Of a stretch of DNA of 64,000 bases, positions 32,576 to 52,668 are shown in pieces. The position numbers and the translations under genes are program-made. This stretch comes from an uncultured Rikenellaceae bacterium (GTDB lineage: Bacteria > Bacteroidota > Bacteroidia > Bacteroidales > VadinHA17): contig CAYPHL010000002.1 of assembly GCA_964410385.1 (NCBI GenBank), positions 16,720 to 80,719 of the forward strand. Reading direction: 5' to 3'. The notes under the pieces were generated by a model, which was not told the DNA's origin, did not search any database, and saw nothing but the letters and a program-made list of their open reading frames with translations. Position 1 is the stretch's first letter; each line of letters starts with the position of its first letter.

Positions 32576-32586
32576 AATATTTTAAA

Positions 32587-33175: not shown

Positions 33176-33186
33176 TTTCTGTAATT

Positions 33187-34119
33187 TTAGTAACCAAACG
33201 AAATCAAAACCAGTGCAATAACAGCGATCAGATTCATCCAGATCACGAAGAAGCTGATGGCCTGCTTTATCTTTAGTCTTGGATTTGTATTTCTTATCAA
33301 TGTCAATATCAGAACTATAAGAAGTATTTTGAGTACCGACCAGAGTATGTTTATCCCCCCGGGCCTGAACCCGTTCATTAGTACAGCAACAAGAAGTGCC
33401 GGAAGGATGAAAATCATAATGTATTTTGTAAGTTTTATGAGTGCATATGCAGGTCCGGAATACTCGATGAAAATACCTTCAGTGATCTCTGCTTCTGCTT
33501 CAGGTATATCAAAGGGGACCAATGCCAGTTTTGCCTGAACACAGAATATCCCGGCAATGAAAAGAATTACCCCTGAGATGCTGGCAATAAAAGGTGATCC
33601 TTCCTGTTGAGTGTGGATTATTGTGTACAGATCGAAATTCTGTCCGGATTTCATTATAATTCCTGCAATGAAGAGCAGGAAGGTAAGCTCGTAACTCATG
33701 ATGAGCTTCATTTCCCTCGATCCCCCGATAGCAGCAAGCGGATTTCCCGAGGCCAGAGAACCTGTTATGTACGAAAACGACGGGATTGTAAGCAGGTAGA
33801 AGATGACCAGGAGATCTCCTTTGAATCCCGTGGTGATGTTAAACAAAGGTAACAATATGAAGATACCTGCCAGTACAGCTCCGATAACCCCGAAAACAGG
33901 AGCCAGCAGAAACAGAACAGGTGATCCGTGTTTCGGCAGAATAGTCTCCTTTACAAGCAAAAGTTTGAAAAAATCATAAAAAGGTTGCAGCAGTGGAGGT
34001 CCCTTGCGGAACTGGACCCTGGCAGTGATCTTCCTGTCGAACCATGATAGAAATGCTCCTGTAACCGCGGTGAAAAGCAGCCCCGGGAAAATAAAGAAAT
34101 AAAAGAAATTGACTGCCAT
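33187..34119 (-). CDS. NuoH/HycD/MbhM-like membrane subunit
   Basis: 310 aa polytopic protein. DRKITARVQFRKGP and EAEAEITEG motifs of the NuoH family. Confidence 0.85.
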   Translation of the reverse strand: MAVNFFYFFIFPGLLFTAVTGAFLSWFDRKITARVQFRKGPPLLQPFYDFFKLLLVKETILPKHGSPVLFLLAPVFGVIGAVLAGIFILLPLFNITTGFKGDLLVIFYLLTIPSFSYITGSLASGNPLAAIGGSREMKLIMSYELTFLLFIAGIIMKSGQNFDLYTIIHTQQEGSPFIASISGVILFIAGIFCVQAKLALVPFDIPEAEAEITEGIFIEYSGPAYALIKLTKYIMIFILPALLVAVLMNGFRPGGINILWSVLKILLIVLILTLIRNTNPRLKIKQAISFFVIWMNLIAVIALVLISFGY

Positions 34120-34120
34120 A

Positions 34121-34618
34121 TTATTTTATTTCAGTTTTATAGAGATACTCTCTTATAAGAACTTTTTCGTTGAGCCGGTAAATATTCTTTTCAGGCGATT
34201 CACCGTCATCAGTCATATACGCTGTCCCGGCAGGACAGGCGTCAATGAATTTATTCGCCTCATCCTCATCACCAAGGTTGTAAAACAGTTCCCGGTTACG
34301 GTGATGAACAAAGAAATCTGTCATCATGGTACCGAAAGGACATATTGTAACACACGACTTACATGAAACGCAAAGGTTGGTATGGCGTGCAACAACTCCA
34401 TCACTATCCTTTTCAAGTGCTTCAGTCGGACAGACAGCAATACAGGGAGCATCTTCACATTTTCTGCAGGTGAACATGAAGGTTGCCAGCTCCCTTATTG
34501 TTTTCAGGCCGTTTGAATTTGGAGATTGATAGAATAATCCTTCCGGGAGTGTAAGGTCAGAATTAACTGACATTGCCTCCCGGAGCCTGATCATATCTAT
34601 TACCAGATTCTTTGGCAT
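34121..34618 (-). CDS. 2x[4Fe-4S] ferredoxin-domain protein
   Basis: CRKCEDAPCIAVCP and CVSCKSCVTICP. Confidence 0.75.
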   Translation of the reverse strand: MPKNLVIDMIRLREAMSVNSDLTLPEGLFYQSPNSNGLKTIRELATFMFTCRKCEDAPCIAVCPTEALEKDSDGVVARHTNLCVSCKSCVTICPFGTMMTDFFVHHRNRELFYNLGDEDEANKFIDACPAGTAYMTDDGESPEKNIYRLNEKVLIREYLYKTEIK

Positions 34619-34619
34619 A

Positions 34620-35444
34620 TCAGTCCCAGATATTTGGTTGATCTTTTATTTCGTTGTAGGTGAAGACAGGGCCGTCTTTGCAGACAAAGAACTCTCCCAT
34701 CATGCAATGACCACATTTCCCGAGTCCGCAGGACATGTTCTTCTCCATAGAAAGGTATATCTGTTCGTCTTTATATCCCATCTCAAGGATCTTTATAGTA
34801 CCGTATTTCATCATTACAGGCGGACCGCAGACAACAGCCACAGAGTTAGAAACATTAACCCTGACATTATTCAGAAGGGTGGGAGCAACTCCTACCGGCC
34901 CGTCCCATTCTTCATCTCCTTTGTCAACTGTCCTGTAAGCTTCAAATTTATCAATGCTGTTCAGCCTGTTAAACAGAGGTTTATAAATACAATCTGCCGG
35001 TGTTTTTGATCCGTAGCAAAGGATTACCTTCTCAAGATTGTCCTTCACATGTTCAAGGGCATAGAGCAGTGATCTGATAGGTGCAAGGCCGCAACCACCT
35101 CCAAGTATCAGAACCTCTTTCCCGAAGAACCTTTCAACAGGATAACCCCTGCCATACGGCCCCCTTATACCCATTAAAACACCCGGCATAAGATTGTGCA
35201 TGATCTCCGTAACATACCCGGTTTTCATTACAGTGACCTCAAGCCGGTCATGTATCAATGGCGATGATGAAGGAGTAAAGGGCGCTTCCCCGATACCATC
35301 AACAGATAATTCAATGAACTGCCCGGTACTGAAAATGAAATCTTCCTCAGGAAAAAGGACAAATGTTTTTATCAGAGGCGATTCTTCAATCACTTCAGTC
35401 AGTCTGGCCTTTAATGGCTTGTAAATATTTCTTTGGCCGCTCAT
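34620..35444 (-). CDS. FAD/NAD(P)H-binding oxidoreductase with C-terminal [2Fe-2S] (sulfhydrogenase gamma/AsrB/PyrK-like)
   Basis: Ferredoxin-reductase-type fold (FSTGQFIEL, LILGGGCGLAPI) and the C-terminal cluster motif CGLGKCGHC. Confidence 0.8.
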   Translation of the reverse strand: MSGQRNIYKPLKARLTEVIEESPLIKTFVLFPEEDFIFSTGQFIELSVDGIGEAPFTPSSSPLIHDRLEVTVMKTGYVTEIMHNLMPGVLMGIRGPYGRGYPVERFFGKEVLILGGGCGLAPIRSLLYALEHVKDNLEKVILCYGSKTPADCIYKPLFNRLNSIDKFEAYRTVDKGDEEWDGPVGVAPTLLNNVRVNVSNSVAVVCGPPVMMKYGTIKILEMGYKDEQIYLSMEKNMSCGLGKCGHCMMGEFFVCKDGPVFTYNEIKDQPNIWD

Positions 35445-36442
35445 AAAGCTGTCCGGGCAAGTTCCATGAACAATTCATTTTTATTTATCTTGCCTATACA
35501 GGCATCGATGCATCTTCCGCAACCGGTACAGGCAACCGGACTGAATTTTTCGGGTTTCCAGACATATTTGCACATATATCTGTTCCTGAATCTGTTGTGA
35601 AGACGAAAAAGGGAATCTTCGCCTCCGGCTACCCTTTCAAAACCAGGATACTGGCAGGCGTCAAGCTGTTTTACCTTTTCAAAACCGGGCTTGTCTATAA
35701 GCAAAAAACAGCTGCATGTGGGACAAATTGTTGCACATGCACCGCACGAAACACACTTTGATGAATATTTTGACCATAACTCTTTTCCAGCCAGGCTGAC
35801 TATCTCTCCGGTTCGCTTATAATCCGGAAGTCCCTTATTTGTTTCTGCCAGCAGAGCCTCAGTCGCGGTGTGCTCACTTTCGATAGCCGCTAGAACTCCT
35901 TCCTCCCTGCATTCATGTGATGACTCAATTTTATTCAGGAAATCTTCACCCTTCTGCGTAATTATCCTTAGATACACAATTCCTTCAATTATAATCAGGC
36001 CAAGATCTGCAATGGCTGTCGGATATGGTCTGATACCATAGGAAGTGCAATGGCAATGTTCCTGCTTTCCAATACAGTCGGAACCAATAATGATCGTATT
36101 CTCACGACGCTTCCTGAAAAAAATATCATTGAAGTCCCTGTCAAGATAAATTTCATCAAGCAGGGCAAGCGCTTCAACATCACAGTTCGGTGGTCCGATT
36201 ATTATCCTGGGTTTTTCACCAATCCTTTCGCCTGTTACATTTTCTTTAACAGGCAGGAAGAAATTTTTAAGAGGAGTTACAGGTTTCGGTTCGTTATAGA
36301 CTATTGCCTCAATATCTGAAGCGGCTATATATTCATAATCCTGACCGTGCTCACTGCTGACAGGGGCGAAGACATCATGAGATGAAAGCAAATCAAGGAT
36401 TACTTTATCCCATTCTTTCTTTGTTATACTATTATAACGCAT
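35441..36442 (-). CDS. 4Fe-4S cluster protein (sulfhydrogenase beta/AsrA-like), first gene of the operon
   Basis: CVSCGACATICPTCSC and CTGCGRCIDAC in the C-terminal half. Overlaps the next gene by 4 nt. Confidence 0.75.
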   Translation of the reverse strand: MRYNSITKKEWDKVILDLLSSHDVFAPVSSEHGQDYEYIAASDIEAIVYNEPKPVTPLKNFFLPVKENVTGERIGEKPRIIIGPPNCDVEALALLDEIYLDRDFNDIFFRKRRENTIIIGSDCIGKQEHCHCTSYGIRPYPTAIADLGLIIIEGIVYLRIITQKGEDFLNKIESSHECREEGVLAAIESEHTATEALLAETNKGLPDYKRTGEIVSLAGKELWSKYSSKCVSCGACATICPTCSCFLLIDKPGFEKVKQLDACQYPGFERVAGGEDSLFRLHNRFRNRYMCKYVWKPEKFSPVACTGCGRCIDACIGKINKNELFMELARTAL

Positions 36443-36630: not shown

Positions 36631-37314
36631 GTGAAACAAATCACAAAATATGTAATAAAAAACAGCCTTAAAAGGATCTTTCTCTACAGGGCATGCCTTG
36701 TAAGACTGAAACTTATGGGAGTTGAGCGGGTATATTCCTATACTCTGGCACATGAAACAGGGGTTACTTCTGATCAGGTCAGGAAAGACTTTTCAGAATT
36801 TAAAATTACCGGAAACAAGAGGGGAGGCTATAAAATAAATGAGTTACTGGAAAAGATGGAAAGCATTTTTCACAGGAATCAGGATCATAATATAGTTCTC
36901 ATCGGGATGGGTAATATGGGTCTTGCTTTATCGAAGTACAGCCGGTTTGTTCAGAGGAACATGAATATTGTGGCAACTTTCGATATCGATCCTTTCAAGC
37001 AGAAGCAGCGATCTGATCTTCCGGTTTATTCAATGAGCAGACTGAAAGAGATCATCGACAGGTTTAAAGTCAGGGTTGCCATAATTGCAGTTCCTGAGAT
37101 ATCTGCCCAGGAGGTTGCAGATGAGCTGGTTCGCCATGGTATTAAGGGAATTGTGAATTTCGCCCCGGTCCTTTTGAAAATGCCCCCCGACGTTGTAATT
37201 AATAATGTGAACCTCTGCGATGAACTTGAAAGTGTGATCTATTATGTTCACAAACAGATTAAAGCGGACGGAACTAAAAATCTGGAGCTATTATACAAGG
37301 GTATGAAATACTGA
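36631..37314 (+). CDS. rex: redox-sensing transcriptional repressor Rex
   Basis: GTG start. N-terminal winged-helix part (LKRIFLYRACL...YSYTLAHETGVTSDQVRKDFS) and a Rossmann domain (NIVLIGMGNMGLAL). Confidence 0.85.
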   Translation: MKQITKYVIKNSLKRIFLYRACLVRLKLMGVERVYSYTLAHETGVTSDQVRKDFSEFKITGNKRGGYKINELLEKMESIFHRNQDHNIVLIGMGNMGLALSKYSRFVQRNMNIVATFDIDPFKQKQRSDLPVYSMSRLKEIIDRFKVRVAIIAVPEISAQEVADELVRHGIKGIVNFAPVLLKMPPDVVINNVNLCDELESVIYYVHKQIKADGTKNLELLYKGMKY

Positions 37315-37325
37315 TCAAGGGTCTG

Positions 37326-39554
37326 GTGCAGGGTGTCGGATTCCGGCCATTTATCTACCGGATGGCAGTAAAGCACGGATTATCAGGGGAAGTTGACAAC
37401 CGGAGCGATGGAGTTTATCTTATAGTTCAGGGCGATTCCTCTGCAATAGACAGGTTTACAAACGATGTGCTCCATAACGCGCCACCTGCATCCCGTATAA
37501 AATCAATAGAAATGAGCCCTGTAAGGACAGCCGGCTATGTAGGATTTACAATAGCGGAAAGTAAAGACTTTAACAGGAATGTAACTGAGATAAGCCCTGA
37601 TATTGCGGTCTGCAGGGAATGCCTTGACGATATGGAAACCGATCCCGCCAGGATTGCTTATCCTTTCGTAAACTGCACACATTGTGGTCCCAGGTTTACA
37701 ATTATTGAAGAATTGCCCTATGACCGTCAGAAAACGACGATGAGAAGCTTTGAAATGTGTGGTAAATGCAGATCAGAATACGGGAATATGCTGGACAGAC
37801 GCTTCCATGCACAGCCTGTTGCGTGCAACTCGTGCGGACCAGCATACAGATACGAAAACAATTCAGGTGGCTGTACAGATATAAATGAAATTATTGAAAC
37901 TATTGCACTTCAGATAGATTCAGGAAAAATAGTTGCCCTTAAAGGGCTTGGAGGCTACCACCTTCTGTGCGATTCATTTAATAATAATGCTGTCCTGACT
38001 CTCAGGAAAAGGAAGCAAAGAGACTCCAAACCATTTGCAGTAATGTTCAGAGATGTTGAGACAGCTTCGGAATATTGCTTTATAGAAAAAGAGGACAAAA
38101 ATGAACTCCAGTCGTGGAGAAGACCAGTTGTAATTCTAAGACAAAAAAATGAAATGGCTCCGGCAGTAAATAATGATCTGTCCACAACAGGGGCATTAAT
38201 GCCATACATGCCATTCCATTATTTGCTGTTCAAAAAGTTAAATACCCGCGCAATTGTTTTTACCAGTGCTAATATGTCAGATGAACCGGTAATAATCGAT
38301 GACGTGATTGCCGGTAATGAACTGACCCATGTGGCAGATTCTCTGGTAAGCTACAACCGTGAAATACTTAACAGGGCTGATGACTCTGTCGTAAGGTTCA
38401 TAGATAACAGATTGACTGTGATCCGGCGTTCAAGGGGCTTTGTTCCGGGGCCCGTTGATATCAGGTTTGAAGCAGAAGGTATTCTTGCCCTGGGTGCAGA
38501 ACAAAAAAACAGTTTCTGTATCGGAAAGGGCAGACAGGCTATCCTGGGCCAGTATATCGGCGATCTTAAAAATAAGTCAACTTTAGATTTTTTCACCGGA
38601 TCGATAGAAAGATTTGGAAAATTGTTCCGTTTTAAGCCTTCATTCTTAGCCTGTGATCTTCACCCGGATTATCTTTCTTCACAATACGCAGAAAATCTTG
38701 AAGCCAGGCTCGGGATCCCTCTTCTGAAGGTGCAGCATCATCACGCACATGTTGCATCCTGTATGGCTGAGAATTGTATCGACGAAGAAGTTATCGGAGT
38801 GTGCTTTGACGGTACAGGTCTTGGAACAGACGGAACAATCTGGGGCGGAGAATTTATGATAGCAGACCTGTGTGACTTCAGAAGATATAGTCATTTTGAT
38901 GAAATACAACTTCCCGGAGGTGATAAAGTGGCAAATGAGCCATGGAGGTCTGCGTTTTCATATCTGTGGAAATATTTTGGTGATGATTTTGACTATTATA
39001 GCATCCCTGCCTTCAGGACCATCTCACAGGAAAAATTCTTAGCATTAAGGGAGATGCTTGATAAGAAAATAAATACACCGCTTTCTTCCGGTGCGGGCCG
39101 TCTGTTCGACGCAGTATCGGCTATGACAGGATTGTGTACATTTTCATCATTCGATTCGGAAGCTCCCATCAGACTTGAATCGGCAATATGTGATTTCACG
39201 GATGACATTTATCCCTTTCAGGCCGGAAAAACAGTAGTGTTCAGGGATACACTGAAAGAAATTCTGAAAGATATCCCGGAAAGATCTGTATCACTCATTT
39301 CCGCCAAATTCCATAATACAATTGCCAGGCTTATTCTTGACGTTGCCGTTCAGATACGAAGTGAAACATCTGTTAATAAAATAGTCCTTACCGGAGGGGT
39401 TTTTCAGAACAAATATCTTCTGGAAAAATCCTTATATCTTTTAAGGAAGTGTGAATTTGAAACTTTTACCAATAATTATGTACCACCAAATGACGGGGGA
39501 ATTTCACTTGGCCAGCTGGTGATTGCATCAAAAAAGCGTGAAATATGTGCCTGA
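37326..39554 (+). CDS. hypF: [NiFe]-hydrogenase maturation carbamoyltransferase HypF (start uncertain, see findings)
   Basis: Acylphosphatase signature VQGVGFRPF, two Zn-finger pairs (CRECLDD...CTHCGPR; CGKCRSEY...CNSCGP), then YrdC-like and Kae1-like domains. Confidence 0.9.
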   Translation: MQGVGFRPFIYRMAVKHGLSGEVDNRSDGVYLIVQGDSSAIDRFTNDVLHNAPPASRIKSIEMSPVRTAGYVGFTIAESKDFNRNVTEISPDIAVCRECLDDMETDPARIAYPFVNCTHCGPRFTIIEELPYDRQKTTMRSFEMCGKCRSEYGNMLDRRFHAQPVACNSCGPAYRYENNSGGCTDINEIIETIALQIDSGKIVALKGLGGYHLLCDSFNNNAVLTLRKRKQRDSKPFAVMFRDVETASEYCFIEKEDKNELQSWRRPVVILRQKNEMAPAVNNDLSTTGALMPYMPFHYLLFKKLNTRAIVFTSANMSDEPVIIDDVIAGNELTHVADSLVSYNREILNRADDSVVRFIDNRLTVIRRSRGFVPGPVDIRFEAEGILALGAEQKNSFCIGKGRQAILGQYIGDLKNKSTLDFFTGSIERFGKLFRFKPSFLACDLHPDYLSSQYAENLEARLGIPLLKVQHHHAHVASCMAENCIDEEVIGVCFDGTGLGTDGTIWGGEFMIADLCDFRRYSHFDEIQLPGGDKVANEPWRSAFSYLWKYFGDDFDYYSIPAFRTISQEKFLALREMLDKKINTPLSSGAGRLFDAVSAMTGLCTFSSFDSEAPIRLESAICDFTDDIYPFQAGKTVVFRDTLKEILKDIPERSVSLISAKFHNTIARLILDVAVQIRSETSVNKIVLTGGVFQNKYLLEKSLYLLRKCEFETFTNNYVPPNDGGISLGQLVIASKKREICA

Positions 39555-39775
39555 GTATCCCTGCCAGAATAATTTCGATTGACGGAAGCATGGCAGAGGT
39601 ATCTGCCGGCGGGACGGTTTTTAAGGCCGGACTCCAGATGGTCGAAGATGTGATTGTCGGAGACTACATTCTGCTTCATGCCGGATTCGCAATTCAGAAG
39701 ATCAGCGAAGAAGAGGCTTCTGAAACAATGAAGCTGCTGAAAGAGATGGAAGACGCCATGAACGATACAGAATGA
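39545..39775 (+). CDS. hypC: hydrogenase assembly chaperone HypC/HupF
   Basis: MCLSIPARI N-terminus with the essential Cys2. 76 aa. Confidence 0.9.
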   Translation: MCLSIPARIISIDGSMAEVSAGGTVFKAGLQMVEDVIVGDYILLHAGFAIQKISEEEASETMKLLKEMEDAMNDTE

Positions 39776-40857
39776 AATATATCGACGAATACAGGGACAG
39801 GGATCTGATAATGAAGCTTGCCGCTCAGATAAGAAGATCGGTAAAAGGGACATATACTTTCATGGAGGTTTGCGGGGGTCATACAGCTGCCATTCAAAGG
39901 TTTGGCATTACGTCACTTCTCCCTGAAGAGGTGAAGCTTATTTCCGGTCCCGGCTGTCCGGTATGCGTGACTGAAAAAGATTTCATCGACAAGGCAATAG
40001 AGTATTCTTTGAAAAAGGATGTTATTCTGACTACTTTCGGCGATCTGATGAGGGTTCCGGGTTCGCTCACTTCACTTGAGAAAATGAAATCTTCAGGTGC
40101 TGATATCAGGATAGTTTTTTCAGGGCTGGATGCTCTTAAAACAGCCCGGATTAATCCTGATAAGAAGGTCATTTTCCTCGGTATAGGCTTTGAAACAACA
40201 GCTCCGGGCACAGCTGTTACTATAAAAAGTGCTGTGATGGAAAAAGTCAGCAATTTCTTTGTTCTCAGCTCACATAAGATAATGCCTCCTGCTATGGAAG
40301 CAATTCTTAAAGACGGAACTGCCGTTGACGGATTTATCTGCCCCGGTCATGTTGCAGTTGTTACAGGTTCATCAGCCTTTGATTTCATTCCGGAAAAATT
40401 TTCCAGGGGATGTGTTGTTACCGGATTTGAACCGACAGATATACTACTGGGTATATATATGCTTATACAACAGGTAAATAATAATGATCCGTCTGTGGAG
40501 ATCCAGTATAAAAGGGCTGTTACAAGAAATGGGAATCCTATGGCAAAAAGCGTAATGCAGGCTGTTTTTGAAAAATGTGATGCTTCCTGGAGAGGATTTG
40601 GTTCAATACCCTTAAGCGGTCTTGTCCCTGGAAAAGATTACCGGAGATTTGATGCTGAATATCAAATGCCTGTGACGGTAAATTCACTTCCTGATGATGA
40701 ATTATGTATGTGCGGCGATATTCTGAGAGGGTGGAAAACACCTGAAGAATGTCCTCTTTTCAGCAGAACATGTAATCCATTGAATCCGGTTGGTGCATGC
40801 ATGGTTTCGAATGAAGGATCATGCAATACATGGTATAAATACAAACTGGCAAAATGA
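39772..40857 (+). CDS. hypD: hydrogenase formation protein HypD
   Basis: MEVCGGHT, GPGCPVCV and FETTAP motifs. Confidence 0.95.
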   Translation: MKYIDEYRDRDLIMKLAAQIRRSVKGTYTFMEVCGGHTAAIQRFGITSLLPEEVKLISGPGCPVCVTEKDFIDKAIEYSLKKDVILTTFGDLMRVPGSLTSLEKMKSSGADIRIVFSGLDALKTARINPDKKVIFLGIGFETTAPGTAVTIKSAVMEKVSNFFVLSSHKIMPPAMEAILKDGTAVDGFICPGHVAVVTGSSAFDFIPEKFSRGCVVTGFEPTDILLGIYMLIQQVNNNDPSVEIQYKRAVTRNGNPMAKSVMQAVFEKCDASWRGFGSIPLSGLVPGKDYRRFDAEYQMPVTVNSLPDDELCMCGDILRGWKTPEECPLFSRTCNPLNPVGACMVSNEGSCNTWYKYKLAK

Positions 40858-41861
40858 AAGATATAATAACCCTCGGTCATGGCAGCGGAGGGAAACAGAT
40901 GCATGATCTTATAAAAGAAATTTTTACAGGAAGCTTTGGTATGCCTGAGCCTCTTACTGATTCGGCAATACTCGATTTCACCGGGAATAAACTTGCATTT
41001 ACAACTGACTCCTATGTGGTTGATCCTTTGTTTTTCCCGGGCGGGAATATTGGTAAGCTTGCAGTATGTGGTACTGTCAATGATCTGGCGGTATCGGGCG
41101 CCAGACCATTATATCTTTCAGCATCTTTTATAATTGAGGAAGGATTTCCTTTCGCTAAACTATCAGAAATTGCCGCTTCAATGGCAGAGGAGGCTCATAA
41201 TGCTGGAATAAAGATCGTTACCGGAGATACGAAGGTTGTTGAAAAAGGCAAGTGCGACGGGTTGTTCATAACCACTTCCGGCGCAGGAGCTATACTTCCC
41301 CGAAGAGAACATATTAGTTCAGGCAACAGGATCCGCCCGGGAGATAGGCTGATTATTAACGGACCTCTGGGAAATCACTCAATAGCCGTCCTTGGGGCAA
41401 GAAAAGAACTCAGTTTTACAACAAACGTGGTTTCGGATTGTGCAGTTTTGAATCACCTTCTCGAATCGGTCTGTAACGCCTGTGATGAGATACATTTTAT
41501 GCGCGATGTTACAAGGGGCGGACTGGCTGCTGTATTGAACGAGATTGCCGGAATTACGGGAATGGGCATGTCAGTAGATGAACCATCAGTGCCGGTTGAC
41601 GACCCGGTGAGAGGAGCATGCGAAATGCTTGGCTTTGATCCTCTTTACCTGGCAAATGAAGGTAAGGTGCTGATAATAGCCGGTGCAGGATCAGAAGACA
41701 AAATTCTCGGGATAATGCGCTCTGATCCGGCCGGAACACGCTCGGAAATAATCGGAGAAGTATTAAGCATTGAAAAAAACCATGTTATTCTGAATACTGT
41801 CACAGGAGGAAAGAGAATAATCGATATGCCAACCGGTTTACAGCTTCCAAGGATATGTTAA
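40854..41861 (+). CDS. hypE: hydrogenase expression/formation protein HypE
   Basis: PurM-like fold with the C-terminal PRIC motif. Confidence 0.95.
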   Translation: MKDIITLGHGSGGKQMHDLIKEIFTGSFGMPEPLTDSAILDFTGNKLAFTTDSYVVDPLFFPGGNIGKLAVCGTVNDLAVSGARPLYLSASFIIEEGFPFAKLSEIAASMAEEAHNAGIKIVTGDTKVVEKGKCDGLFITTSGAGAILPRREHISSGNRIRPGDRLIINGPLGNHSIAVLGARKELSFTTNVVSDCAVLNHLLESVCNACDEIHFMRDVTRGGLAAVLNEIAGITGMGMSVDEPSVPVDDPVRGACEMLGFDPLYLANEGKVLIIAGAGSEDKILGIMRSDPAGTRSEIIGEVLSIEKNHVILNTVTGGKRIIDMPTGLQLPRIC

Positions 41862-43969: not shown

Positions 43970-44019
43970 GATGGTAGTATGGTCGTGCGGTCATGCGGTC
44001 GTGCAGTCGTGCGGTCTGG
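43969..44019. repeat. 8-bp tandem array (NNTGNGGT / GGTCGTGC units, about 6)
   Basis: aggatggt agtatggt cgtgcggt catgcggt cgtgcagt cgtgcggt. Starts at the last base of the TAG stop (43967-43969). Confidence 0.85.
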
Positions 44020-44057: not shown

Positions 44058-44168
44058 CCGTTGCCCCCCCTGTACCGTTGCGCCCCTGTACCATTGTACC
44101 ATTGCGCCCCTGTGCCATTGCGCCCTTGCGCCGCTGTACCATTGAGCCATTGCGCCGCTGTGCCATTG
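44058..44168. repeat. 8-bp tandem array (CCNNTGNN units, about 14), same unit type as 2873-2970
   Basis: ccgttgcg cccctgta ccattgta ccattgcg cccctgtg ccattgcg cccttgcg ccgctgta ccattgag ccattgcg ccgctgtg ccattg. Confidence 0.9.
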
Positions 44169-44224
44169 TTTATTTTAATTCTAAATTATCAACAAATAGA
44201 GTTACTCAGTTTTTTTTTAGTCTA

Positions 44225-44304: not shown

Positions 44305-44772
44305 ATGTATCAATTGGGAAATCTAGTAAAGGAATTATCCGACAAGCATGGCCGGGCCAGGGATAGTCTTATCCCTATTCTGCAGGGTATTGTTGAAAGG
44401 CATAATTACCTTACCGACGAGGCAATGGTTGAAGTTGCGAAAGAGCTGGATATATCGGCAGCTGAAGTTTACGGAACGGCCTCATTCTATACCTTTCTCG
44501 ATACAACCGTGAGAGGTAAATATGTCATCAGGGTCTGTAAAACTATAACCTGTTCAATGAAGGGTAAAAGTGAAATTATTGAAACCCTCGAAGATATGCT
44601 TAAGATAAAGGTGGGAGAGACTACTTCTGATCGTCAGTTCAGTCTGATTGAAACCAACTGTATTGGCTGGTGCCATAAGGCTCCGGCAATTCTGATAAAT
44701 GAAATGCCTTATACCGAGCTTACACCGGAAAAGGTTGTTGAGATCATTAAGGGTTATATGCAAAAAAGATAA
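44305..44772 (+). CDS. NuoE/HydC/HndA-like [2Fe-2S] thioredoxin-like ferredoxin subunit
   Basis: 155 aa. Cluster Cys pattern VCKTITC...CIGWCHKAP. Confidence 0.85.
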   Translation: MYQLGNLVKELSDKHGRARDSLIPILQGIVERHNYLTDEAMVEVAKELDISAAEVYGTASFYTFLDTTVRGKYVIRVCKTITCSMKGKSEIIETLEDMLKIKVGETTSDRQFSLIETNCIGWCHKAPAILINEMPYTELTPEKVVEIIKGYMQKR

Positions 44773-44784
44773 CACTGAGGTATT

Positions 44785-45945
44785 ATGGAAAAAAGAGGAC
44801 TGAATAAAGTAGATCTGATCTTTGAAAAAATAGATCCGAGAGAAGTACTTACGATAGCTTTTAAGATGTCTCCTGCCGATATTATTCAGCAGGTGCTTGA
44901 TTCAGGACTGAAGGGACGCGGCGGTGCCGGATTCCCTACAGGGCTGAAATGGAAATATACCGCAGCGGTCAAAGAGCCTGATAAGTATGTTGTATGCAAT
45001 GCAGATGAAGGTGAGCCAGGGACCTTCAAAGATCGCGAGATTCTGGACCGGGTTGCTTACAAGGTTTATGGAGGCATGGCAATAGCAGCAAGGGCGATAG
45101 GAGCAAAGAAGGGTATTGTTTACCTGCGTGGTGAATATAAATTCCTTCTGCCTCAGCTGATGACGGAACTGGAAAAATTCCACAAGCTTGTAAAGGAAAT
45201 CGGATATGATTTCAGGATAAATTTCTGTATGGGGAGTGGAGCATATATCTGCGGTGAGGAAAGTGCACTTTTTGAATCTGTTGAAGGTGGACGGGGTGAA
45301 CCTCGTAATAAACCTCCTTACCCGACAACATCAGGGGTATTCGGCAAGCCGACTTCCATAAATAATGTTGAGACCCTGGTTACATCAATGATGATCATTA
45401 AACATGGTCCTGAATCATACAGCCAGCTTGGTACAAAAGACTCAAGGGGTTCAAAAGTGTTCTCCATATCCGGAGATACTCCGACCCCGGGGATCTTTGA
45501 ACTTGAACTTGGCATGTCGGTACATGAATTCGTCAATGAGTTCGGCGATGGTGATACAAAAGCTGTACAGGTTGGCGGCGCCTCAGGTTTCTGTGTCCCG
45601 AGAAAAAGATTTGATCAGACAGTAATAGGATTTGAAGGCGTTCCCACGGGAGGATCGATGAAGTTATTCAACAGCTCAAGATCAATGTATAACGTTCTTC
45701 ATAATTACCTGGATTTCTTCGCGGAAGAATCGTGCGGACAATGTACCCCTTGCCGGGTCGGTTGCCAGCAACTGCTCAAAGGTGTTGAGAAGGTCAAAAA
45801 AGGAGAAGTAAAATCGACTTATCTTAATGAACTGGTCAAGCTCGCCGATACTATGAAAGTAGCTTCAAAATGCGGACTCGGCCAATCAGTGGGCAATGCA
45901 TTCAAGACAATTGTTGAGAACTTCAGGGAAGAGATCATCTATTAA
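44785..45945 (+). CDS. NuoF/HydB-like NADH- and FMN-binding subunit, minimal form without extra Fe-S domains
   Basis: GLKGRGGAGFPTGLKW, CNADEGEPGTFKDR, and the N3 cluster motif ESCGQCTPCRVG with the fourth Cys in ASKCGLGQ. Only 386 aa. Confidence 0.9.
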   Translation: MEKRGLNKVDLIFEKIDPREVLTIAFKMSPADIIQQVLDSGLKGRGGAGFPTGLKWKYTAAVKEPDKYVVCNADEGEPGTFKDREILDRVAYKVYGGMAIAARAIGAKKGIVYLRGEYKFLLPQLMTELEKFHKLVKEIGYDFRINFCMGSGAYICGEESALFESVEGGRGEPRNKPPYPTTSGVFGKPTSINNVETLVTSMMIIKHGPESYSQLGTKDSRGSKVFSISGDTPTPGIFELELGMSVHEFVNEFGDGDTKAVQVGGASGFCVPRKRFDQTVIGFEGVPTGGSMKLFNSSRSMYNVLHNYLDFFAEESCGQCTPCRVGCQQLLKGVEKVKKGEVKSTYLNELVKLADTMKVASKCGLGQSVGNAFKTIVENFREEIIY

Positions 45946-45966
45946 TTACTAAATCATAGCGAAATA

Positions 45967-47748
45967 ATGATAAATCTGAGTATAAATAACCAGAGAGTTT
46001 CAGTTCAGCCGGGCACAACTGTTCTGGAGGCTGCCAGGAAACTTAATATTAACATTCCGACATTATGTAACCATCCCGACCTTTGCGTTGCAGGTAACTG
46101 CCGCGTTTGTGTAGTCGAACAGACCGGGGCAAGAACACTGATCGCCGCGTGTGCAATGCCTGCAGCAGAAGGAATGGATATACAAACAAATACACTGAAG
46201 GTAAGAAATGCAAGGAAACACATTGTTGAGCTCCTGCTTTCAGAACACAGGTCGGATTGCACGAAATGTTATAAAAATCAGAAATGTGAACTTCAGTCAC
46301 TTGCAAATGAATTTGCCTTCGGAGATACTATATTCCTCGATCTGGTTCAGGATCGCCCCTATACCATTGACAGATCCTCGCCTTCATTTATCAAGGATGA
46401 CAGCAAATGTATCCGCTGCCAGAGATGTGTGAGAACATGTACGGAGTTACAGCATATTTCTGCAATTGCTGTGGCAAACAAGGGAATGCACCAGAAAATA
46501 TCTTCATTCCACGACCGGCCTATGAGCCACGTTGTTTGTACTAATTGCGGACAGTGTGTAAACCGCTGCCCTACAGGTGCACTCGTTGAAAAGACCTATA
46601 TCGACCAGGTATGGGATGCTATCTATGATCCGGAAAAATATGTTGTTGTACAAACAGCCCCTGCAGTAAGAGTTGCCCTGGGTGAGGATCTGGGATATGA
46701 TCCCGGGGAAAGGGTTACAGGAAAAATGGTCACTGCACTCAGACAGCTTGGATTTGATTCAATACTGGATACTGACTTCAGCGCTGACCTGACTATTATG
46801 GAAGAAGGGACAGAGTTGCTTACAAGGTTAAAAAAGGTTCTGGTCGACGGCGATAAGAAAACATCAATCCCGATGTTTACATCCTGTTCACCCGGCTGGA
46901 TAAAATTCATTGAACATAAATATCCTGAGTTCCTTCATAACCTTTCTACCTGCAAATCGCCCCAGCAAATGTTCGGAGCACTTGCAAAGACATTCTATGC
47001 CCAGAAGAAGAAACTTGATCCCTCGAAAGTAGTCTCAGTATCAGTTATGCCCTGTACGGCGAAGAAATATGAAGCCGACCGTCCGGAAATGAGATCAAGC
47101 GGATATAAGGATATCGATTTTGTCCTTACAACCCGTGAACTTGCTGTAATGATCAAGCAGGCAGGTATTGACTTCAGGAATCTTGAACCTACTCATTATG
47201 ATTCTGTAATGGGTGATTCAACAGGCGCTGCCGTCATTTTCGGTGCAACCGGAGGTGTAATGGAGGCTGCTCTGCGGACTGCCTATGAGATTGTTACAGG
47301 AAGAGAAGTTCCTTTCACAAATCTGAATATTACTCCTGTCCGGGGTATGGAGGGCGTGAAAGAAGCAACAGTTAAGATCGAAGGATGTACCGATGACTGG
47401 AAATTCCTCGAGGGTGCCGAACTGAAGGTAGCCATTGCCCATGGGTTAGTAAATGCCAACAAGATCATGAGAGAAGTAAGAAAGGGCAAATCGCCATACC
47501 ACTTTGTTGAAATAATGGCCTGCCCCGGAGGTTGTATAGGTGGTGGAGGACAACCTATTCCCACAAGCATGGACATCAGGAAAAAACGTATGAAAGCAAT
47601 CTACTCGGAGGATGAACATATGGTTCTCAGGAAATCACACGAAAATCCGGATGTAATAGCTATTTACAAGGAATTCCTCGGGAAGCCAAACAGCCATCTG
47701 GCTCATGAACTGCTACATACACATTACGTCGAACGGGAAGGTTATTAA
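45967..47748 (+). CDS. hydA: [FeFe]-hydrogenase catalytic subunit (NuoG-like N-terminus plus H-domain)
   Basis: N-terminal [2Fe-2S] domain, a His-ligated cluster region (HRSDCTKC), and 2x[4Fe-4S] (CIRCQRCVRTC, CTNCGQCVNRCP). H-cluster motifs are FTSCSPGW, MPCTAKKYE and EIMACPGGCIGGGGQP. Confidence 0.9.
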   Translation: MINLSINNQRVSVQPGTTVLEAARKLNINIPTLCNHPDLCVAGNCRVCVVEQTGARTLIAACAMPAAEGMDIQTNTLKVRNARKHIVELLLSEHRSDCTKCYKNQKCELQSLANEFAFGDTIFLDLVQDRPYTIDRSSPSFIKDDSKCIRCQRCVRTCTELQHISAIAVANKGMHQKISSFHDRPMSHVVCTNCGQCVNRCPTGALVEKTYIDQVWDAIYDPEKYVVVQTAPAVRVALGEDLGYDPGERVTGKMVTALRQLGFDSILDTDFSADLTIMEEGTELLTRLKKVLVDGDKKTSIPMFTSCSPGWIKFIEHKYPEFLHNLSTCKSPQQMFGALAKTFYAQKKKLDPSKVVSVSVMPCTAKKYEADRPEMRSSGYKDIDFVLTTRELAVMIKQAGIDFRNLEPTHYDSVMGDSTGAAVIFGATGGVMEAALRTAYEIVTGREVPFTNLNITPVRGMEGVKEATVKIEGCTDDWKFLEGAELKVAIAHGLVNANKIMREVRKGKSPYHFVEIMACPGGCIGGGGQPIPTSMDIRKKRMKAIYSEDEHMVLRKSHENPDVIAIYKEFLGKPNSHLAHELLHTHYVEREGY

Positions 47749-47780
47749 AAAAAAGCCGGTTCAAACCGGCTTCTTTTTTG
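47749..47780. terminator. bidirectional rho-independent terminator
   Basis: A8-AAGCCGGT-tcaa-ACCGGCTT-cT6, directly after the hydA stop. Confidence 0.85.
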
Positions 47781-47785
47781 TCATT

Positions 47786-47864
47786 CAGTCTGTGCAGTCC
47801 TGCAGTCCTGCAGTCCTGCGTTGTTAGCCGAACCTTGCTTTGACTTTTGCCAACTGCCAACTGC
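47786..47864. repeat. bipartite tandem arrays: CAGTCCTG x3 (plus a degenerate copy), then GCCAACT x2
   Basis: Blocks at 47786-47818 and 47849-47864. The second unit is the reverse complement of the GTTGGCA unit at 32675-32695. Confidence 0.85.
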
Positions 47865-47892
47865 TTGTATGGCCTTTACATCACAGCTCCTG

Positions 47893-50829
47893 CTAACCTA
47901 TTATTTCAAGTATCTCCTTTATATCTAGATCCCTCAGTGGATTGGAAGTTGTAACAAACGATTCGGCAAGCTTCGATTTTTTCTCCTGAAGTCTCAGTAT
48001 CTTTTCTTCAAGGGTTCCTGAGGTTATGTACCGGTAAATAAAAACATTCTTATCCTGGCCTATCCTGTGTGCCCTGCTTAGCGCCTGAAGCTCGGCTGCA
48101 GGATTCCACCACGGATCAAGAATAAATACATAATCAGCCGATGTCAGATTTAATCCTGTTCCCCCTGCTTTCAGAGATATCAGAAAGATATGGATGTCCG
48201 GATCATTCTGAAAACCTTCAATAACTTTCTTCCTGTTGGTAGTGGCCCCTGTCAGCATCGAAAACCTTCTGTTTCTTTCTTCAAGCGCCTCTGAAAATAG
48301 TTTCAGGTGCATGACAAATGATGAGAATACAAGTATTTTATGTCCTTCATTGACAACATTCTCAATATTGTCCAGAATTGTTTCAAACTTCCCGGAGCCT
48401 CCTGCATATTCTTCATCTGCCATCACAGGATGATTGGATATCTGCCTGAGCCTCATAAGTCCCTGTAAAACAATGATCGCAGTCTTTACAGCTTCTTTAT
48501 TTTCCATTCCGCTCATAATGAGTTTCCTGACAGCCGATCTTTCTTCTTCATAAATCTTTGCCTGTTCCTCTGTCATCTCACAAAAAACAGTCTGCTCCGT
48601 AACCGGCGGCAGTTCCGGTGTTACCATCTCTTTCTTCCGCCTTAAAATAAATGGCTTGATAAGCTTTTTTAGTTTTATCTCAATCTCATCATTCCGCTCT
48701 TTTTCAATGGGTCTGGCAAATTCACGTCTGAAATATGAAAGCGAACCGAGCAACCCGGGGTTTACAAAATTGAGCTGAGCCCAGAGATCTGTAATTGAAT
48801 TTTCTACGGGCGTTCCCGTCAGAACAAGCTTATGATCAGATTTCAGCCTGGTAACACTTTTATATATCTGTGACGCGGGATTTTTGATGTACTGGCTTTC
48901 ATCCAGAATTATGTAATGGAAATGGAAAGATGTAAAAAAATTAATATCCTGTCTTACAGTATGATAGCTTGAAAGCACTATATCAAAGCCCGAAAAGTTC
49001 ATTGCATGACGGTCGCGTTGTGCTCCCTTATGCCTGTACACCTTCATTCCGGGGACAAACCTGTGAATTTCATTCTCCCAGTTATGGATAATGGTGGGCG
49101 GTACAATAATAAGCGAGGTAAGGCTGGCAGAAGGATCATCGAAAAGTGATAAGGACCTGCTTCCGGTAGTTTTCACGGAAGCCGGGATCTTTTCCTTGTT
49201 CAGTTGCAGGAGAGCAAGTGTTTGTATTGTCTTTCCAAGTCCCATATCATCGGCGAGACATCCTCCAAGTCCTGAGGATTGAAGCCATATCAGCCAGCCC
49301 AGGCCTTCAAACTGGTATCCCCTCATTTCGCATTTAAGTCCGGCCGGTTTAACAGGCAAAGGCAGTTCCTCAGGTATAAGGAGCTTCTCAAGATATCCGA
49401 ATGACTCATTTTCCTCCTCTTTAAGGATTTCAATAAGTAAGGGGAAATGCTGCTTGTGTATCCTTATTGATCCGTTCTGATCTTTCCCGAATTCAAATAA
49501 GCTCCGGTATTCAGTAAACCATTCAGCCGGAAGAATTGCAATGGTACCATCCGGTAACTCATACTCATGTATCTCGTTCAGGATATTATGCTTAAACCGG
49601 ATAAAAGGGAATTGATATTCTCCGATCCGGATTATGGCCTGAAGGTCAAACCAATCTCCCTCCCTGTTATTGCTGATTTCAATGTTTACCGGTCTGAGAT
49701 TATACTCTTTATCAAGCTGCCTGGAAGTAATAATAAAACCCGCGGAAACAAGGCTCTCATAATTCCGGTTCAATGCTTCAATAACCCGGTGTAAATCTGT
49801 GACAGGTTTCAGGTCATCATCCTGCAGGTAATAATTGACCAGATCATCTGAATTAAACCCCGTTTCAAGAAGGAAATCCCTGCAACCTTCTTCCCATTTC
49901 AGGTCACGGCCGTATTTGTGAAAAATAAACTCACCTCCCTTGTTCTCAAATGTTGTGAAATTTTCCGACCGGTCATCAGGCGATACCATGATACCTGAAT
50001 AGTAATAGCCCAGTATAAGAACAGGATGTCCTCTGATACTGTTCTCAAGACTTATTGATACTTTCTTTTCGGGAACAGGTGTAACAACCCTGAATCCGGT
50101 GCCTTCTGTTTTATAACAATTTACGGCGTTCAGGACAAATCCTGAGAAGTACCTGGTTTCAGTGTTCTTTGGAACTATTACAGCCTCCTTTGTAAGGAAA
50201 GGGCGAAGCTTCTGACCATCGATATCTCTGATCAGCAGTAATTTGTTCCCAGTCTTTATTATGCATGGACTATTACACAGAATATCGATGGGATTACGGT
50301 ATAATTCTATCTTTTTACCTTCCGATTCGATTTTTAATTTGTAGGTAACCGATTCATCAGACCTTTCAAACCTGAACAGAGGAACAGCCGGTTCAGGAAG
50401 AAAATCAAGCCTGTCCTCAGGATGAATAATGTTGGAATGTGATCTGCTGATGAAACACAGAATGCCTTCATCCCTGAGAAGATAATAACATTTCCTTAAC
50501 CTTTTCTCAATATAAGGTCTTATTAATTTTTCAATTTTTTCCTGTGAGACATTTTCAAGGAATTCCTTAACGCTTTTATCTTTTGAATAGAGCCTGTAAA
50601 TCGGCCTGTCGGAATATTCATTTGTGATCCTGACAAGTTCAATCTCTTCACTGTCGAGAGTTTTTAAAGTTTCCTCCGACGGGTAAGGTGAAAGACATTC
50701 TGACAGGATGAAATATTTTTTCCCGGGTACACCTGCTATAAGATAAGGAAGGAATATCTTTCCCCAGAGCCTGTGCGATGTCAGGATAAGGGCAAATTTT
50801 CTTTGTCTGTTTTCGGGTGTCTGATCCAA
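47893..50829 (-). CDS. SNF2-family helicase/ATPase with a long uncharacterised N-terminal region
   Basis: The C-terminal half carries SNF2 motifs (LADDMGLGKT, ILDESQYIKN, LTGTPVEN, helicase-C with GGTGLNLT...DPWWNP). The N-terminal ~480 aa are unassigned. Confidence 0.85.
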   Translation of the reverse strand: MDQTPENRQRKFALILTSHRLWGKIFLPYLIAGVPGKKYFILSECLSPYPSEETLKTLDSEEIELVRITNEYSDRPIYRLYSKDKSVKEFLENVSQEKIEKLIRPYIEKRLRKCYYLLRDEGILCFISRSHSNIIHPEDRLDFLPEPAVPLFRFERSDESVTYKLKIESEGKKIELYRNPIDILCNSPCIIKTGNKLLLIRDIDGQKLRPFLTKEAVIVPKNTETRYFSGFVLNAVNCYKTEGTGFRVVTPVPEKKVSISLENSIRGHPVLILGYYYSGIMVSPDDRSENFTTFENKGGEFIFHKYGRDLKWEEGCRDFLLETGFNSDDLVNYYLQDDDLKPVTDLHRVIEALNRNYESLVSAGFIITSRQLDKEYNLRPVNIEISNNREGDWFDLQAIIRIGEYQFPFIRFKHNILNEIHEYELPDGTIAILPAEWFTEYRSLFEFGKDQNGSIRIHKQHFPLLIEILKEEENESFGYLEKLLIPEELPLPVKPAGLKCEMRGYQFEGLGWLIWLQSSGLGGCLADDMGLGKTIQTLALLQLNKEKIPASVKTTGSRSLSLFDDPSASLTSLIIVPPTIIHNWENEIHRFVPGMKVYRHKGAQRDRHAMNFSGFDIVLSSYHTVRQDINFFTSFHFHYIILDESQYIKNPASQIYKSVTRLKSDHKLVLTGTPVENSITDLWAQLNFVNPGLLGSLSYFRREFARPIEKERNDEIEIKLKKLIKPFILRRKKEMVTPELPPVTEQTVFCEMTEEQAKIYEEERSAVRKLIMSGMENKEAVKTAIIVLQGLMRLRQISNHPVMADEEYAGGSGKFETILDNIENVVNEGHKILVFSSFVMHLKLFSEALEERNRRFSMLTGATTNRKKVIEGFQNDPDIHIFLISLKAGGTGLNLTSADYVFILDPWWNPAAELQALSRAHRIGQDKNVFIYRYITSGTLEEKILRLQEKKSKLAESFVTTSNPLRDLDIKEILEIIG

Positions 50830-50917
50830 TTTCGGGTAAAAAATTATAAATTTAAGAGAGGTTTAAGAATGTTCAAACTTATTTATTGAAATATTTTCTT
50901 CTTAGTTTTGAAATCAA

Positions 50918-51991
50918 TTGAGAAAAATAATTCATATCGACATGGATGCATTTTTCGCATCGGTTGAACAGCTCGATAATCCTGAGCTGAGAGGAAAGCC
51001 TGTTGCTGTCGGCGGAAGCGGTGAAAGACATGTAGTAGCTGCTGCAAGCTATGAGGCAAGGAAATTCGGAGTCAGATCGGCAATGCCTTCAGTCACTGCC
51101 CGGAAACTGTGCCCGCAGCTTATATTTGTCAGACACAGGTTTGAAAGATACCATGAACTGTCAGAAAAGGTTTTCGGGATCTTTACGGAGTACACAGATA
51201 TTGTCGAGCCATTATCTATCGATGAAGCATTTCTTGATGTAACAGTCGATAAAAAGAATATAAAATCCGCCACCCTGATAGCCCGCGAGATAAAGCAGGA
51301 AATAAAAAAGCGGACAGGACTGACAGCTTCAGCCGGCATATCTGTCAACAAATTCCTGGCAAAGATCGCTTCTGACATAAAAAAGCCTGATGGATTATTC
51401 CTTATTCCGCCTGAAGAAGCTGAAGGATTTATTGCAAAGCTGCCCGTTGAAAAGTTTTTTGGGATAGGGAAGGTCACGGCTGAAAAAATGCACAAGCTGG
51501 GTATTCATAACGGAGCCGATCTTAAGAAATGGGATCTGCCTTCACTTATAAGAAATTTCGGTAAGGCAGGAAAATTTTATTATGATATTGCCCGTGGTAT
51601 TGACGACCGTCCGGTTGAAACCGAATCCGAACGGAAATCTGTCGGGACAGAGCTTACTTATGAAAAAGATCTGACAACACAATTCGGGATCATTGCGGAG
51701 CTTTATAAGGTTGAACGGGAACTCATGCACCGTCTTGAACAGGCAGGAACAACCGGGAGGACCGTCACATTAAAAGTAAAATTTGCAGATTTCAGGCAGA
51801 TTACGCGAAGCCGGACACTCAGAAATTATATAAGGGACTTTGAAACACTTCATAAAGCTGTTACTGAAATAAGAAAATCACTCGATCTGCCAGGTAATAA
51901 AATAAGACTTCTGGGAGTGAGCATTTCAAACCTCGAGTCGGATGACGATGAAGACAGGCAGCTTCACCTGTTCGATGATGAAGAATGCTGA
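50918..51991 (+). CDS. dinB: DNA polymerase IV
   Basis: TTG start giving MRKIIHIDMDAFFASVEQ. Y-family motifs SIDEAFLDV and a little-finger domain. Confidence 0.9.
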   Translation: MRKIIHIDMDAFFASVEQLDNPELRGKPVAVGGSGERHVVAAASYEARKFGVRSAMPSVTARKLCPQLIFVRHRFERYHELSEKVFGIFTEYTDIVEPLSIDEAFLDVTVDKKNIKSATLIAREIKQEIKKRTGLTASAGISVNKFLAKIASDIKKPDGLFLIPPEEAEGFIAKLPVEKFFGIGKVTAEKMHKLGIHNGADLKKWDLPSLIRNFGKAGKFYYDIARGIDDRPVETESERKSVGTELTYEKDLTTQFGIIAELYKVERELMHRLEQAGTTGRTVTLKVKFADFRQITRSRTLRNYIRDFETLHKAVTEIRKSLDLPGNKIRLLGVSISNLESDDDEDRQLHLFDDEEC

Positions 51992-52668
51992 TCAGATCCG
52001 GATTGTTCTCCCCCGGATTTGCATCCCATGCCGGTCCTGTTATATCCTACAAAGTACTCCCGGAGTTCATCATAACGGATACTGTGAATGTTGAATAACT
52101 CAGAACCGGGTTCTGCGAATTTTTTGAAATTTTCAAAACGGGATGCAGCATTTTCGAGGATCTTATAACCTATATTTTCTTCAGTGATTCCCCTCGCACG
52201 GTAAATCTCTAAATATCTCTTAATACCCTCGCTTCCGAAAGCATCAAGATCGTCAGCAACAGAAAGTATCTTCAGGATAATATTGCTGCTTTCCGGGTCC
52301 CCGTATTCCTTGTTGTCATGATTTTCTATTGCCGTAAGTGCATCCATGTGGTCGGATAATCTTAATCTGTTCAGAGTCAGATAGCTCTCAGCAGCCATCC
52401 TGCTCCGGTAACCGTGTCGGATCCCCTGGTCTTCTGACATTCCTATGTCGTGAAAGTAGCTGGCAATTAACAGGTTACATATCATTTTAAGATCCATTTC
52501 CACTTCATCGTAATACCGGATGACCTCTTTAACATAATTCCATACCCTTCTGTGATGATCAATATCATGTGACGGAAGATCAGTTTCTCCCCAGGCTTTT
52601 TTAAAGAAATCTTCCACTGACCCGAGAAAAGAGTCTTCAGCCTGTCGGATTATCTCAGAATATTTCAT
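51964..52668 (-). CDS. HD-domain phosphohydrolase-like protein
   Basis: HDIDHHRRV ... YFHDIGM ... NHDN motifs. I place the start at the ATG giving MKYSEIIRQ (52668), because the track's longer N-terminus reads through a repeat element. Confidence 0.7.
   Translation of the reverse strand: MKYSEIIRQAEDSFLGSVEDFFKKAWGETDLPSHDIDHHRRVWNYVKEVIRYYDEVEMDLKMICNLLIASYFHDIGMSEDQGIRHGYRSRMAAESYLTLNRLRLSDHMDALTAIENHDNKEYGDPESSNIILKILSVADDLDAFGSEGIKRYLEIYRARGITEENIGYKILENAASRFENFKKFAEPGSELFNIHSIRYDELREYFVGYNRTGMGCKSGGEQSGSDQHSSSSNR

Follow-up and report, generated by a model that had tools for sequence, protein, structure and literature searches.

A serine in H-cluster motif 1 of an [FeFe]-hydrogenase from an uncultured Bacteroidales bacterium

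The window analysed here is a stretch of 64,000 nucleotides from an uncultured Rikenellaceae bacterium (contig CAYPHL010000002.1), and the subject of this work is its hydA gene, which encodes the catalytic subunit of an [FeFe]-hydrogenase. In H-cluster motif 1 the HydA protein has the sequence TSCSPGW, with serine at a position where a cysteine ligand of the [4Fe-4S]H subcluster is expected. Most probably, HydA is a competent group A enzyme with a serine-ligated cluster, belonging to a non-bifurcating NADH-dependent HydABC complex. The [4Fe-4S] part of the H-cluster would then be held by three cysteines and one serine, whose oxygen takes the place of a cysteine sulfur, with Cys307 remaining the last residue of the proton relay and the three cysteine ligands unchanged, including the one that bridges to the di-iron site. 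HydA would act in a complex with HydC, which is NuoE-like, and with a minimal HydB similar to NuoF. Like Syntrophomonas wolfei Hyd1ABC, this complex would need no ferredoxin and would link the oxidation of NADH to the formation of H2 in a direct and reversible manner. Oxygen ligation, activity and ferredoxin independence are attributed to the complex by analogy with homologues. A natural serine variant is already documented in HydA1 of Acetobacterium woodii, of which the structure is solved and the enzyme is active, and the variant is hence not new; the HydA described here is another serine-type enzyme, from uncultured Bacteroidales, in which the variant is real but ordinary.

Motif 1 and the remainder of the active site

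The sequence, the conservation of the serine, the domain content and the signature residues are direct observations of this analysis. HydA contains the Pfam domains Fer2_4, NADH-G_4Fe-4S_3, a 2x[4Fe-4S] ferredoxin domain, Fe_hyd_lg_C (E-value 1.3e-97) and Fe_hyd_SSU (E-value 3.6e-27). The protein has a [2Fe-2S] domain, a His-ligated [4Fe-4S] cluster, 2x[4Fe-4S] and the H-domain, and its C-terminus resembles the small subunit. It scores above the cut-offs of the NCBIfam models NF040763 ('NADH-dependent [FeFe] hydrogenase, group A6'; 888.8 bits, cut-off 765) and TIGR02512 (527 bits, cut-off 405.95). The label 'group A6' was not encountered in searchable papers.

Motif 1 is read in frame as T305-S306-C307-S308-P309-G310-W311. 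In a phmmer comparison with PDB sequences, PMFTSCSPGW aligned with PMFTSCCPGW of Clostridium pasteurianum CpI, gap-free around the motif. Ser308 corresponds to C300 of CpI, C170 of CrHydA1 and C299 of the Thermoanaerobacter kivui enzyme, whereas Cys307 corresponds to C299 of CpI. The first-pass annotation had described the motif in these terms, with the [4Fe-4S]H ligand replaced by serine and motifs 2 and 3 intact, and it was right on each point. HydA departs from the canonical L1 motif TSCCPxW with its two cysteines, and agrees with L2 (MPCxxKxxE), L3 (ExMxCxxGCxxGGGxP), the proton-relay cysteine and the pathway residues equivalent to CpI E279, E282, R286 and S319. The second cysteine of TSCCPxW is typical for the family and not strictly defining, since the same departure is found in A. 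woodii HydA1 and in 15 of 111 related representatives.

A serine at this position could also stem from a mistake in sequencing or assembly or from the decay of a pseudogene, although nothing beyond the departure from the textbook motif speaks for this. All of the 120 best matches in a collection of 5.8 billion proteins (89-96% identity) have serine in the motif, with TSCSPGW in 117 and TSCSPAW in three. A scan of one genome per species revealed a relative in 384 genomes, of which the best 80 were examined for locus counts; all 80 are metagenome-assembled genomes of uncultured Bacteroidales or 'Rikenellaceae', from sediments, fens, soils and digesters. In these and one added Logan contig (81 loci, about 80 species-level genomes) the codon always encodes serine and occurs as TCA (37), TCT (23), TCG (11) or TCC (10). 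The synonymous codons drift freely while the amino acid is fixed, which indicates purifying selection on serine. A Logan contig built from the reads of another run (ERR15459720) matches positions 44927-52582 of the window with 100% identity over 7656 bp, serine codon included, with no TGC or TGT at 46888-46890. The hydA reading frame is intact and all other motifs are conserved, and we consider an error or pseudogene extremely improbable. It had been argued beforehand that TCA differs from TGY at two positions and that a sequencing error is unlikely for this reason. The difference is as stated and the codon data exclude such an error, but the TCT and TCC codons of relatives (33 of the 81 loci) are one substitution away from TGT and TGC, so that the evolutionary step from cysteine to serine is a single one.

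One HydA in the set of relatives, 91% identical to that of the window, is encoded on a 4-kb contig binned as 'Methanosarcinaceae archaeon' (JAFGCK010000098.1; locus L023, protein P0054). The contig has almost certainly entered that metagenome-assembled genome as a contaminant during binning.

The remainder of the active site is that of an ordinary hydrogenase. Residues equivalent to CpI A230, P231, E279, E282, R286, C299, S319, P324, M353, C355, K358, E361, F417, M497, C499 and C503 are all kept. The other three cysteine ligands of the [4Fe-4S]H cluster are intact, including Cys523, which bridges to the di-iron site. Essentially all of the listed residues are also present in the 15 serine-type representatives found in the motif census described below, with one Thr at the E279 position. 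Of the 22 cysteines of HydA, all but C40, C329 and C474 can be assigned to the accessory clusters, to the three H-cluster ligands or to the proton relay. Residue C40 lies within the N-terminal [2Fe-2S] domain. Residue C329 corresponds to CpI position 321, where cysteine occurs in 80% of the serine-type and 56% of the cysteine-type sequences. A comparison of all H-domain alignment columns between 15 serine-type and 96 cysteine-type sequences gave no compensating cysteine specific to the serine type. The sole notable covariation was a glycine at motif position +2, found in 14 of 15 serine-type (93%) and 35 of 96 cysteine-type sequences (36%). This glycine might reflect the shorter Fe-O bond, in a sample that is small and without phylogenetic correction.

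As to the ligand itself, the first-pass annotation left a choice between the serine and the neighbouring cysteine, the latter with loss of the proton relay, or else an altered or sensory function. In the second case Ser308 would be off the iron, Cys307 would shift to ligate the cluster, and the enzyme would be slow or sensory. Such a shift is geometrically conceivable, as the two residues are adjacent in a flexible loop; the loop that carries C170 in CrHydA1 was called flexible by Kertess et al. 2017 (PMC5855289). It is contradicted by the bidirectional A. woodii HydABC, which has the same motif. In that enzyme Ser301 is modelled as the [4Fe-4S]H ligand, the Fourier-transform infrared (FTIR) signature of the H-cluster is unaffected, the HoxH and Hhyd states accumulate and the complex is fully active (Katsyv et al. 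2023, PMC10021017). By analogy, Ser308 would be the ligand in the window enzyme as well. Further evidence against a shifted cysteine is that the proton pathway as a whole is conserved in every serine-type sequence, the single threonine aside. A Pfam search showed no PAS, methyl-accepting chemotaxis or other signalling domain in HydA, and its partners are NuoE- and NuoF-like diaphorase subunits. An assignment to the sensory HydS proteins (group C) was rejected on the same grounds, with relay Cys307 and the proton-pathway residues intact. With motifs 2 and 3, the remaining three ligands, the relay cysteine and the proton pathway all in place, a sensory or crippled enzyme is unlikely, and we regard ligation by Cys307 as very improbable.

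An engineered counterpart is the C170S variant of CrHydA1, in which the [4Fe-4S] cluster is kept, the [2Fe] site is inserted, albeit slowly, and the FTIR spectrum is unchanged. It was the most active among the ligand variants and was biased to H2 evolution (Kertess et al. 2017, PMC5855289).

Distribution of the serine form

When 1.84 billion representatives (clusters at 50% identity) were searched exhaustively with HMMER, 2,139 matches had E<1e-30. The motif census was restricted to the best 150 of these, of which 131 had a full H-domain and 111 a recognisable motif. Among the latter, [TS]SCSPxW occurs 15 times and [TS][ST]CCPxW 96 times, so that the serine type makes up about 13.5%. According to the first-pass annotation the variant would be unremarkable if TSCSP were common in a well-characterised active subgroup, and this is indeed what the census and the A. 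woodii enzyme indicate. A literature search for a published survey of TSCSP yielded only the work of Di Rienzi et al. 2013, who noted TSCSPGW in hydrogenases of Melainabacteria.

In a rough neighbour-joining tree the serine-type sequences are interleaved with cysteine-type sequences, and the window HydA groups with several serine-type clusters and A. woodii HydA1. Fitch parsimony on this crude tree required at least 11 Cys/Ser changes with cysteine at the root, a count that is an upper-leaning estimate. A single origin of a serine clade is not supported by the tree. The serine form has arisen repeatedly, and purifying selection retains it in the uncultured Bacteroidales lineage. It is found in Bacteroidota, in Bacillota (A. 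woodii and Natronincola peptidivorans, P0128), in Melainabacteria and in a eukaryotic transcriptome (P0141). A tie of the serine to one type of partner was also rejected, as very different modules accompany serine-type HydA proteins: a short NuoF (P0126), a NuoF-GltD fusion (P0124), a neighbouring formate dehydrogenase (P0128, Natronincola), a long HydB of the bifurcating type (P0137, A. woodii) and a HydA-NuoE-NuoF fusion (P0141).

Several of these loci have features of their own. The eukaryotic transcripts P0141 and P0277 (MMETSP) encode single-chain HydA-NuoE-NuoF proteins of about 1,190-1,220 amino acids, of the Nyctotherus ovalis type and with TSCSPGW. In the genomic context of P0124 (loci L082 and L083) a serine-type HydA with 51% BLASTP identity is accompanied by a NuoF-GltD-like fusion of 1,043 amino acids, with a gene for a Rex-like regulator upstream; this layout corresponds to a glutamate-synthase-linked (group A2-like) arrangement. 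On the contig of N. peptidivorans (L087) a 653-residue protein encoded at 6187-8148 has both the H-domain of an [FeFe]-hydrogenase and a signalling domain of the methyl-accepting chemotaxis type, and is presumably a sensory hydrogenase of the group C2 type. Its gene adjoins those for the serine-type HydA and a split formate dehydrogenase. The top match of the representative search, P0121 (2,205 bits), is a protein of 4,122 amino acids that matches the hydrogenase in seven separate places; it is either a giant protein with multiple H-domains or a mis-called or concatenated gene.

The repeated appearance of serine raises the question whether the exchange is neutral or a recurrent adaptive device for tuning the enzyme. 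The latter idea, which draws on at least several independent origins of serine and on the co-occurring glycine at +2, appears doubtful to us. If it holds, the serine would shift the cluster potential or bias catalysis to H2 evolution, as in the engineered C170S variant, and would favour hydrogenases for which the electrons for H2 must come from NAD(P)H, a weak reductant. In the Bacteroidales clade the serine would then be paired with a minimal, ferredoxin-independent diaphorase.

The HydB subunit and the hydCBA locus

The genes hydC, hydB and hydA are tightly spaced (44305-47748), with hydA last. The hairpin directly after its stop codon likely marks the end of the operon (Table 1). HydB has neither the N-terminal [2Fe-2S] domain nor the C-terminal 2x[4Fe-4S] domain of bifurcating enzymes, and the flanking genes leave no space for such extensions; its 386 amino acids compare with 599-630 for HydB in solved bifurcating complexes. 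It is at the C-terminal 2x[4Fe-4S] domain of HydB that ferredoxin is reduced (Katsyv et al. 2023, PMC10021017). The best match among solved structures is HoxF (5xf9), from a non-bifurcating NAD-reducing [NiFe]-hydrogenase.

Four sequence criteria separate bifurcating from non-bifurcating β subunits (Losey 2020). The bifurcating type has Ala or Glu at position 232, Met234, Phe at the site for flavin mononucleotide (FMN) and the motif GGPSG. The non-bifurcating type has Thr or Ser at 232, Lys, Ser or Ala at 234, Tyr at the FMN site and no GGPSG, in a β subunit of about 400 amino acids. HydB of the window has T/K/Y/GGASG and is non-bifurcating by all four criteria, as are all 76 related loci (76/76). 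It fits the T/K/Y/GGxSG pattern in about 400 amino acids of the S. wolfei-type β subunits (Losey 2020, Table S3); A. woodii HydB has GAFMD at the aligned NADH site. HydB is thus unlike the β subunit of a bifurcating HydABC (group A3), which has the extra Fe-S domains as well as Ala/Glu232, Met234, Phe and GGPSG. With the minimal HydB, the four non-bifurcating signatures, the match to HoxF and the NF040763 score of HydA, the complex is most likely a ferredoxin-independent, reversible NADH:H+ oxidoreductase, as judged from sequence. A direct coupling of NADH and H2 is suggested by the missing ferredoxin-reducing domain together with the complete set of non-bifurcating signatures. H2 production driven in this way would be workable only under low H2 pressure, which would fit the sediment, fen and digester habitats.

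An ordinary bifurcating or confurcating HydABC (group A3) could house the serine-ligated HydA if ferredoxin were served by another surface or by an unlinked subunit. The identity of about 50% to the bifurcating HydA1 proteins of A. woodii and T. kivui, membership of the same NCBIfam family and the classical gene order hydC-hydB-hydA are in line with such an enzyme. We nevertheless find it improbable, because HydB is without the two cluster domains, the four diagnostic sites are non-bifurcating in all related loci, and HydB of gut Bacteroides is of a different kind (635 amino acids with A/M/F/GGPSG in Bacteroides thetaiotaomicron). The group A3 HydA of B. thetaiotaomicron was of low activity when matured semi-synthetically (PMC12578642).

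Several points weigh against a serine-ligated, ferredoxin-independent enzyme. The Ser-Fe bond of A. woodii HydA1 is a model built in a cryo-electron microscopy map, and the cluster potential is unreported (PMC10021017). The criteria for β subunits are sequence correlates from few characterised enzymes (Losey 2020), GGASG is one residue off GGPSG, and the NCBI name 'NADH-dependent, group A6' also spans bifurcating enzymes. The genes hydE, hydF and hydG were not found among the open reading frames scanned around the operon in the 64-kb window, and the only maturation genes close to the [FeFe]-hydrogenase operon are those for [NiFe] enzymes (hyp).

Table 1. Features of the hydCBA operon (positions in the window)
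Feature	Position	Strand	Description
hydC	44305..44772	+	NuoE-like thioredoxin-like [2Fe-2S] subunit, 155 aa; Pfam 2Fe-2S_thioredx, E=6.8e-46
hydB	44785..45945	+	minimal NuoF-like flavoprotein, 386 aa; Pfam Complex1_51K and NADH_4Fe-4S only
HydB NADH-site signature CNADEGEPGTFKDR	44995..45036	+	Thr and Lys at Thermotoga maritima HydB positions 232 and 234
HydB FMN-site signature GSGAYICGEE	45232..45261	+	Tyr; Phe in bifurcating enzymes
HydB VGGASG	45571..45588	+	GGPSG at this site in bifurcating HydB
hydA	45967..47748	+	M3-type [FeFe]-hydrogenase catalytic subunit, 593 aa; Pfam, NCBIfam
H-cluster motif 1 TSCSPGW	46879..46899	+	aca tcc tgt tca ccc ggc tgg
Cys307 codon tgt	46885..46887	+	equivalent to CpI C299, proton-relay cysteine
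Ser308 codon tca	46888..46890	+	replaces [4Fe-4S]H ligand; equivalent to CpI C300 and A. woodii Ser301
H-cluster motif 2 MPCTAKKYE	47047..47073	+	Cys363, ligand; Met and Lys conserved
H-cluster motif 3 EIMACPGGCIGGGGQP	47509..47556	+	Cys519, ligand; Cys523, bridging ligand
Terminator-like hairpin and T-run	47753..47782	+	directly after the hydA stop codon

A consensus search for the Rex operator with up to three mismatches gave nine matches (5.2 expected), none of them upstream of hydC. A scan for sigma-70 promoters, which is unsuited to promoters of Bacteroidota, gave nine where 8.1 were expected. The AT-rich spacer harbors GC-rich tandem arrays with a period of 8 nt at 43981-44016 and 44058-44169, about 140-320 nt upstream of the hydC start, which are composed of GGTCGTGC in 4.5 copies and a 24-nt composite unit TGTACCATTGCGCCCCTGTACCAT in four copies. 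Among 70 related Bacteroidales loci, 22 have an array in the corresponding place according to Tandem Repeats Finder, mostly with a period of 7-8 and with differing unit sequences, for example TTGTACCA in nine and TTGCGCCG in 24 copies. The arrays form a hypervariable microsatellite within the promoter region of hydCBA.

Next to this locus the window encodes another hydrogenase system, at about 23853-36442 on the minus strand and 36631-41861 on the plus strand. This is a membrane-bound [NiFe] enzyme resembling group 4, which includes subunits similar to NuoH and NuoD as well as antiporter subunits of the Mrp type. At the head of the operon are two genes that resemble AsrA/AsrB or the β and γ subunits of sulfhydrogenase (Fer4_22; FAD/NAD-binding and DHODB Fe-S domains), and divergent from it are genes for a Rex-like redox regulator followed by HypF, HypD and HypE. 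In such a system an energy-converting hydrogenase would be equipped with a module for binding NAD(P)H.

Significance and comparison with known systems

The variant adds little to hydrogenase chemistry, as a natural serine ligand of the cubane is known in A. woodii and has been mimicked by mutagenesis; a possible tuning of the cubane potential or the catalytic bias by serine would be the sole route by which the finding could gain greater interest. For annotation, the serine form is common, phylogenetically scattered and under purifying selection, and TSCSPxW enzymes should therefore not be scored as non-functional by motif-based pipelines. In addition, a widespread environmental Bacteroidales lineage appears, from its sequences, to carry a ferredoxin-independent NADH-dependent hydrogenase, unlike the confurcating 'group A3' enzyme assumed for gut Bacteroides. 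If true, this would change the predicted H2 threshold of these fermenters and their dependence on syntrophic partners.

Among proteins of solved structure, the best match of HydA is HydA1 of T. kivui (PDB 8A6T) and the second-best is HydA1 of A. woodii (PDB 7Q4V, 7Q4W, 8A5E); full-length identities to the two are about 49-51%, with about 49% for A. woodii. The T. kivui protein, and likewise CpI of C. pasteurianum (42% identity), shares the fold and cluster complement of the window enzyme, but both have an all-cysteine motif, TSCCPSW and TSCCPGW, respectively. A. woodii HydA1 reads TSCSPGWIKFIE and resembles the window enzyme in its identical motif 1, in serine at the ligand position, in M3 architecture and in NuoE- and NuoF-like partners. 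It differs in that its HydB of 599 amino acids has extra Fe-S domains and bifurcates to ferredoxin, whereas the shorter HydB described here carries non-bifurcating signatures; in addition, A. woodii belongs to the Bacillota and the window enzyme to the Bacteroidota. The CrHydA1 C170S variant has the same exchange at the same position, and its cluster and [2Fe] site assemble to an active enzyme, but it is an engineered protein on an M1 scaffold with slow maturation and reduced activity; the natural serine variants presumably have adapted surroundings, such as the glycine at +2. In its HydB features the complex is similar to enzymes of the S. wolfei Hyd1ABC type, which come from other phyla and also consist of three subunits with a minimal β subunit of about 400 amino acids, T/K/Y and GGxSG instead of GGPSG. 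The long HydB of B. thetaiotaomicron is different from that of the window in size and in all four diagnostic sites.

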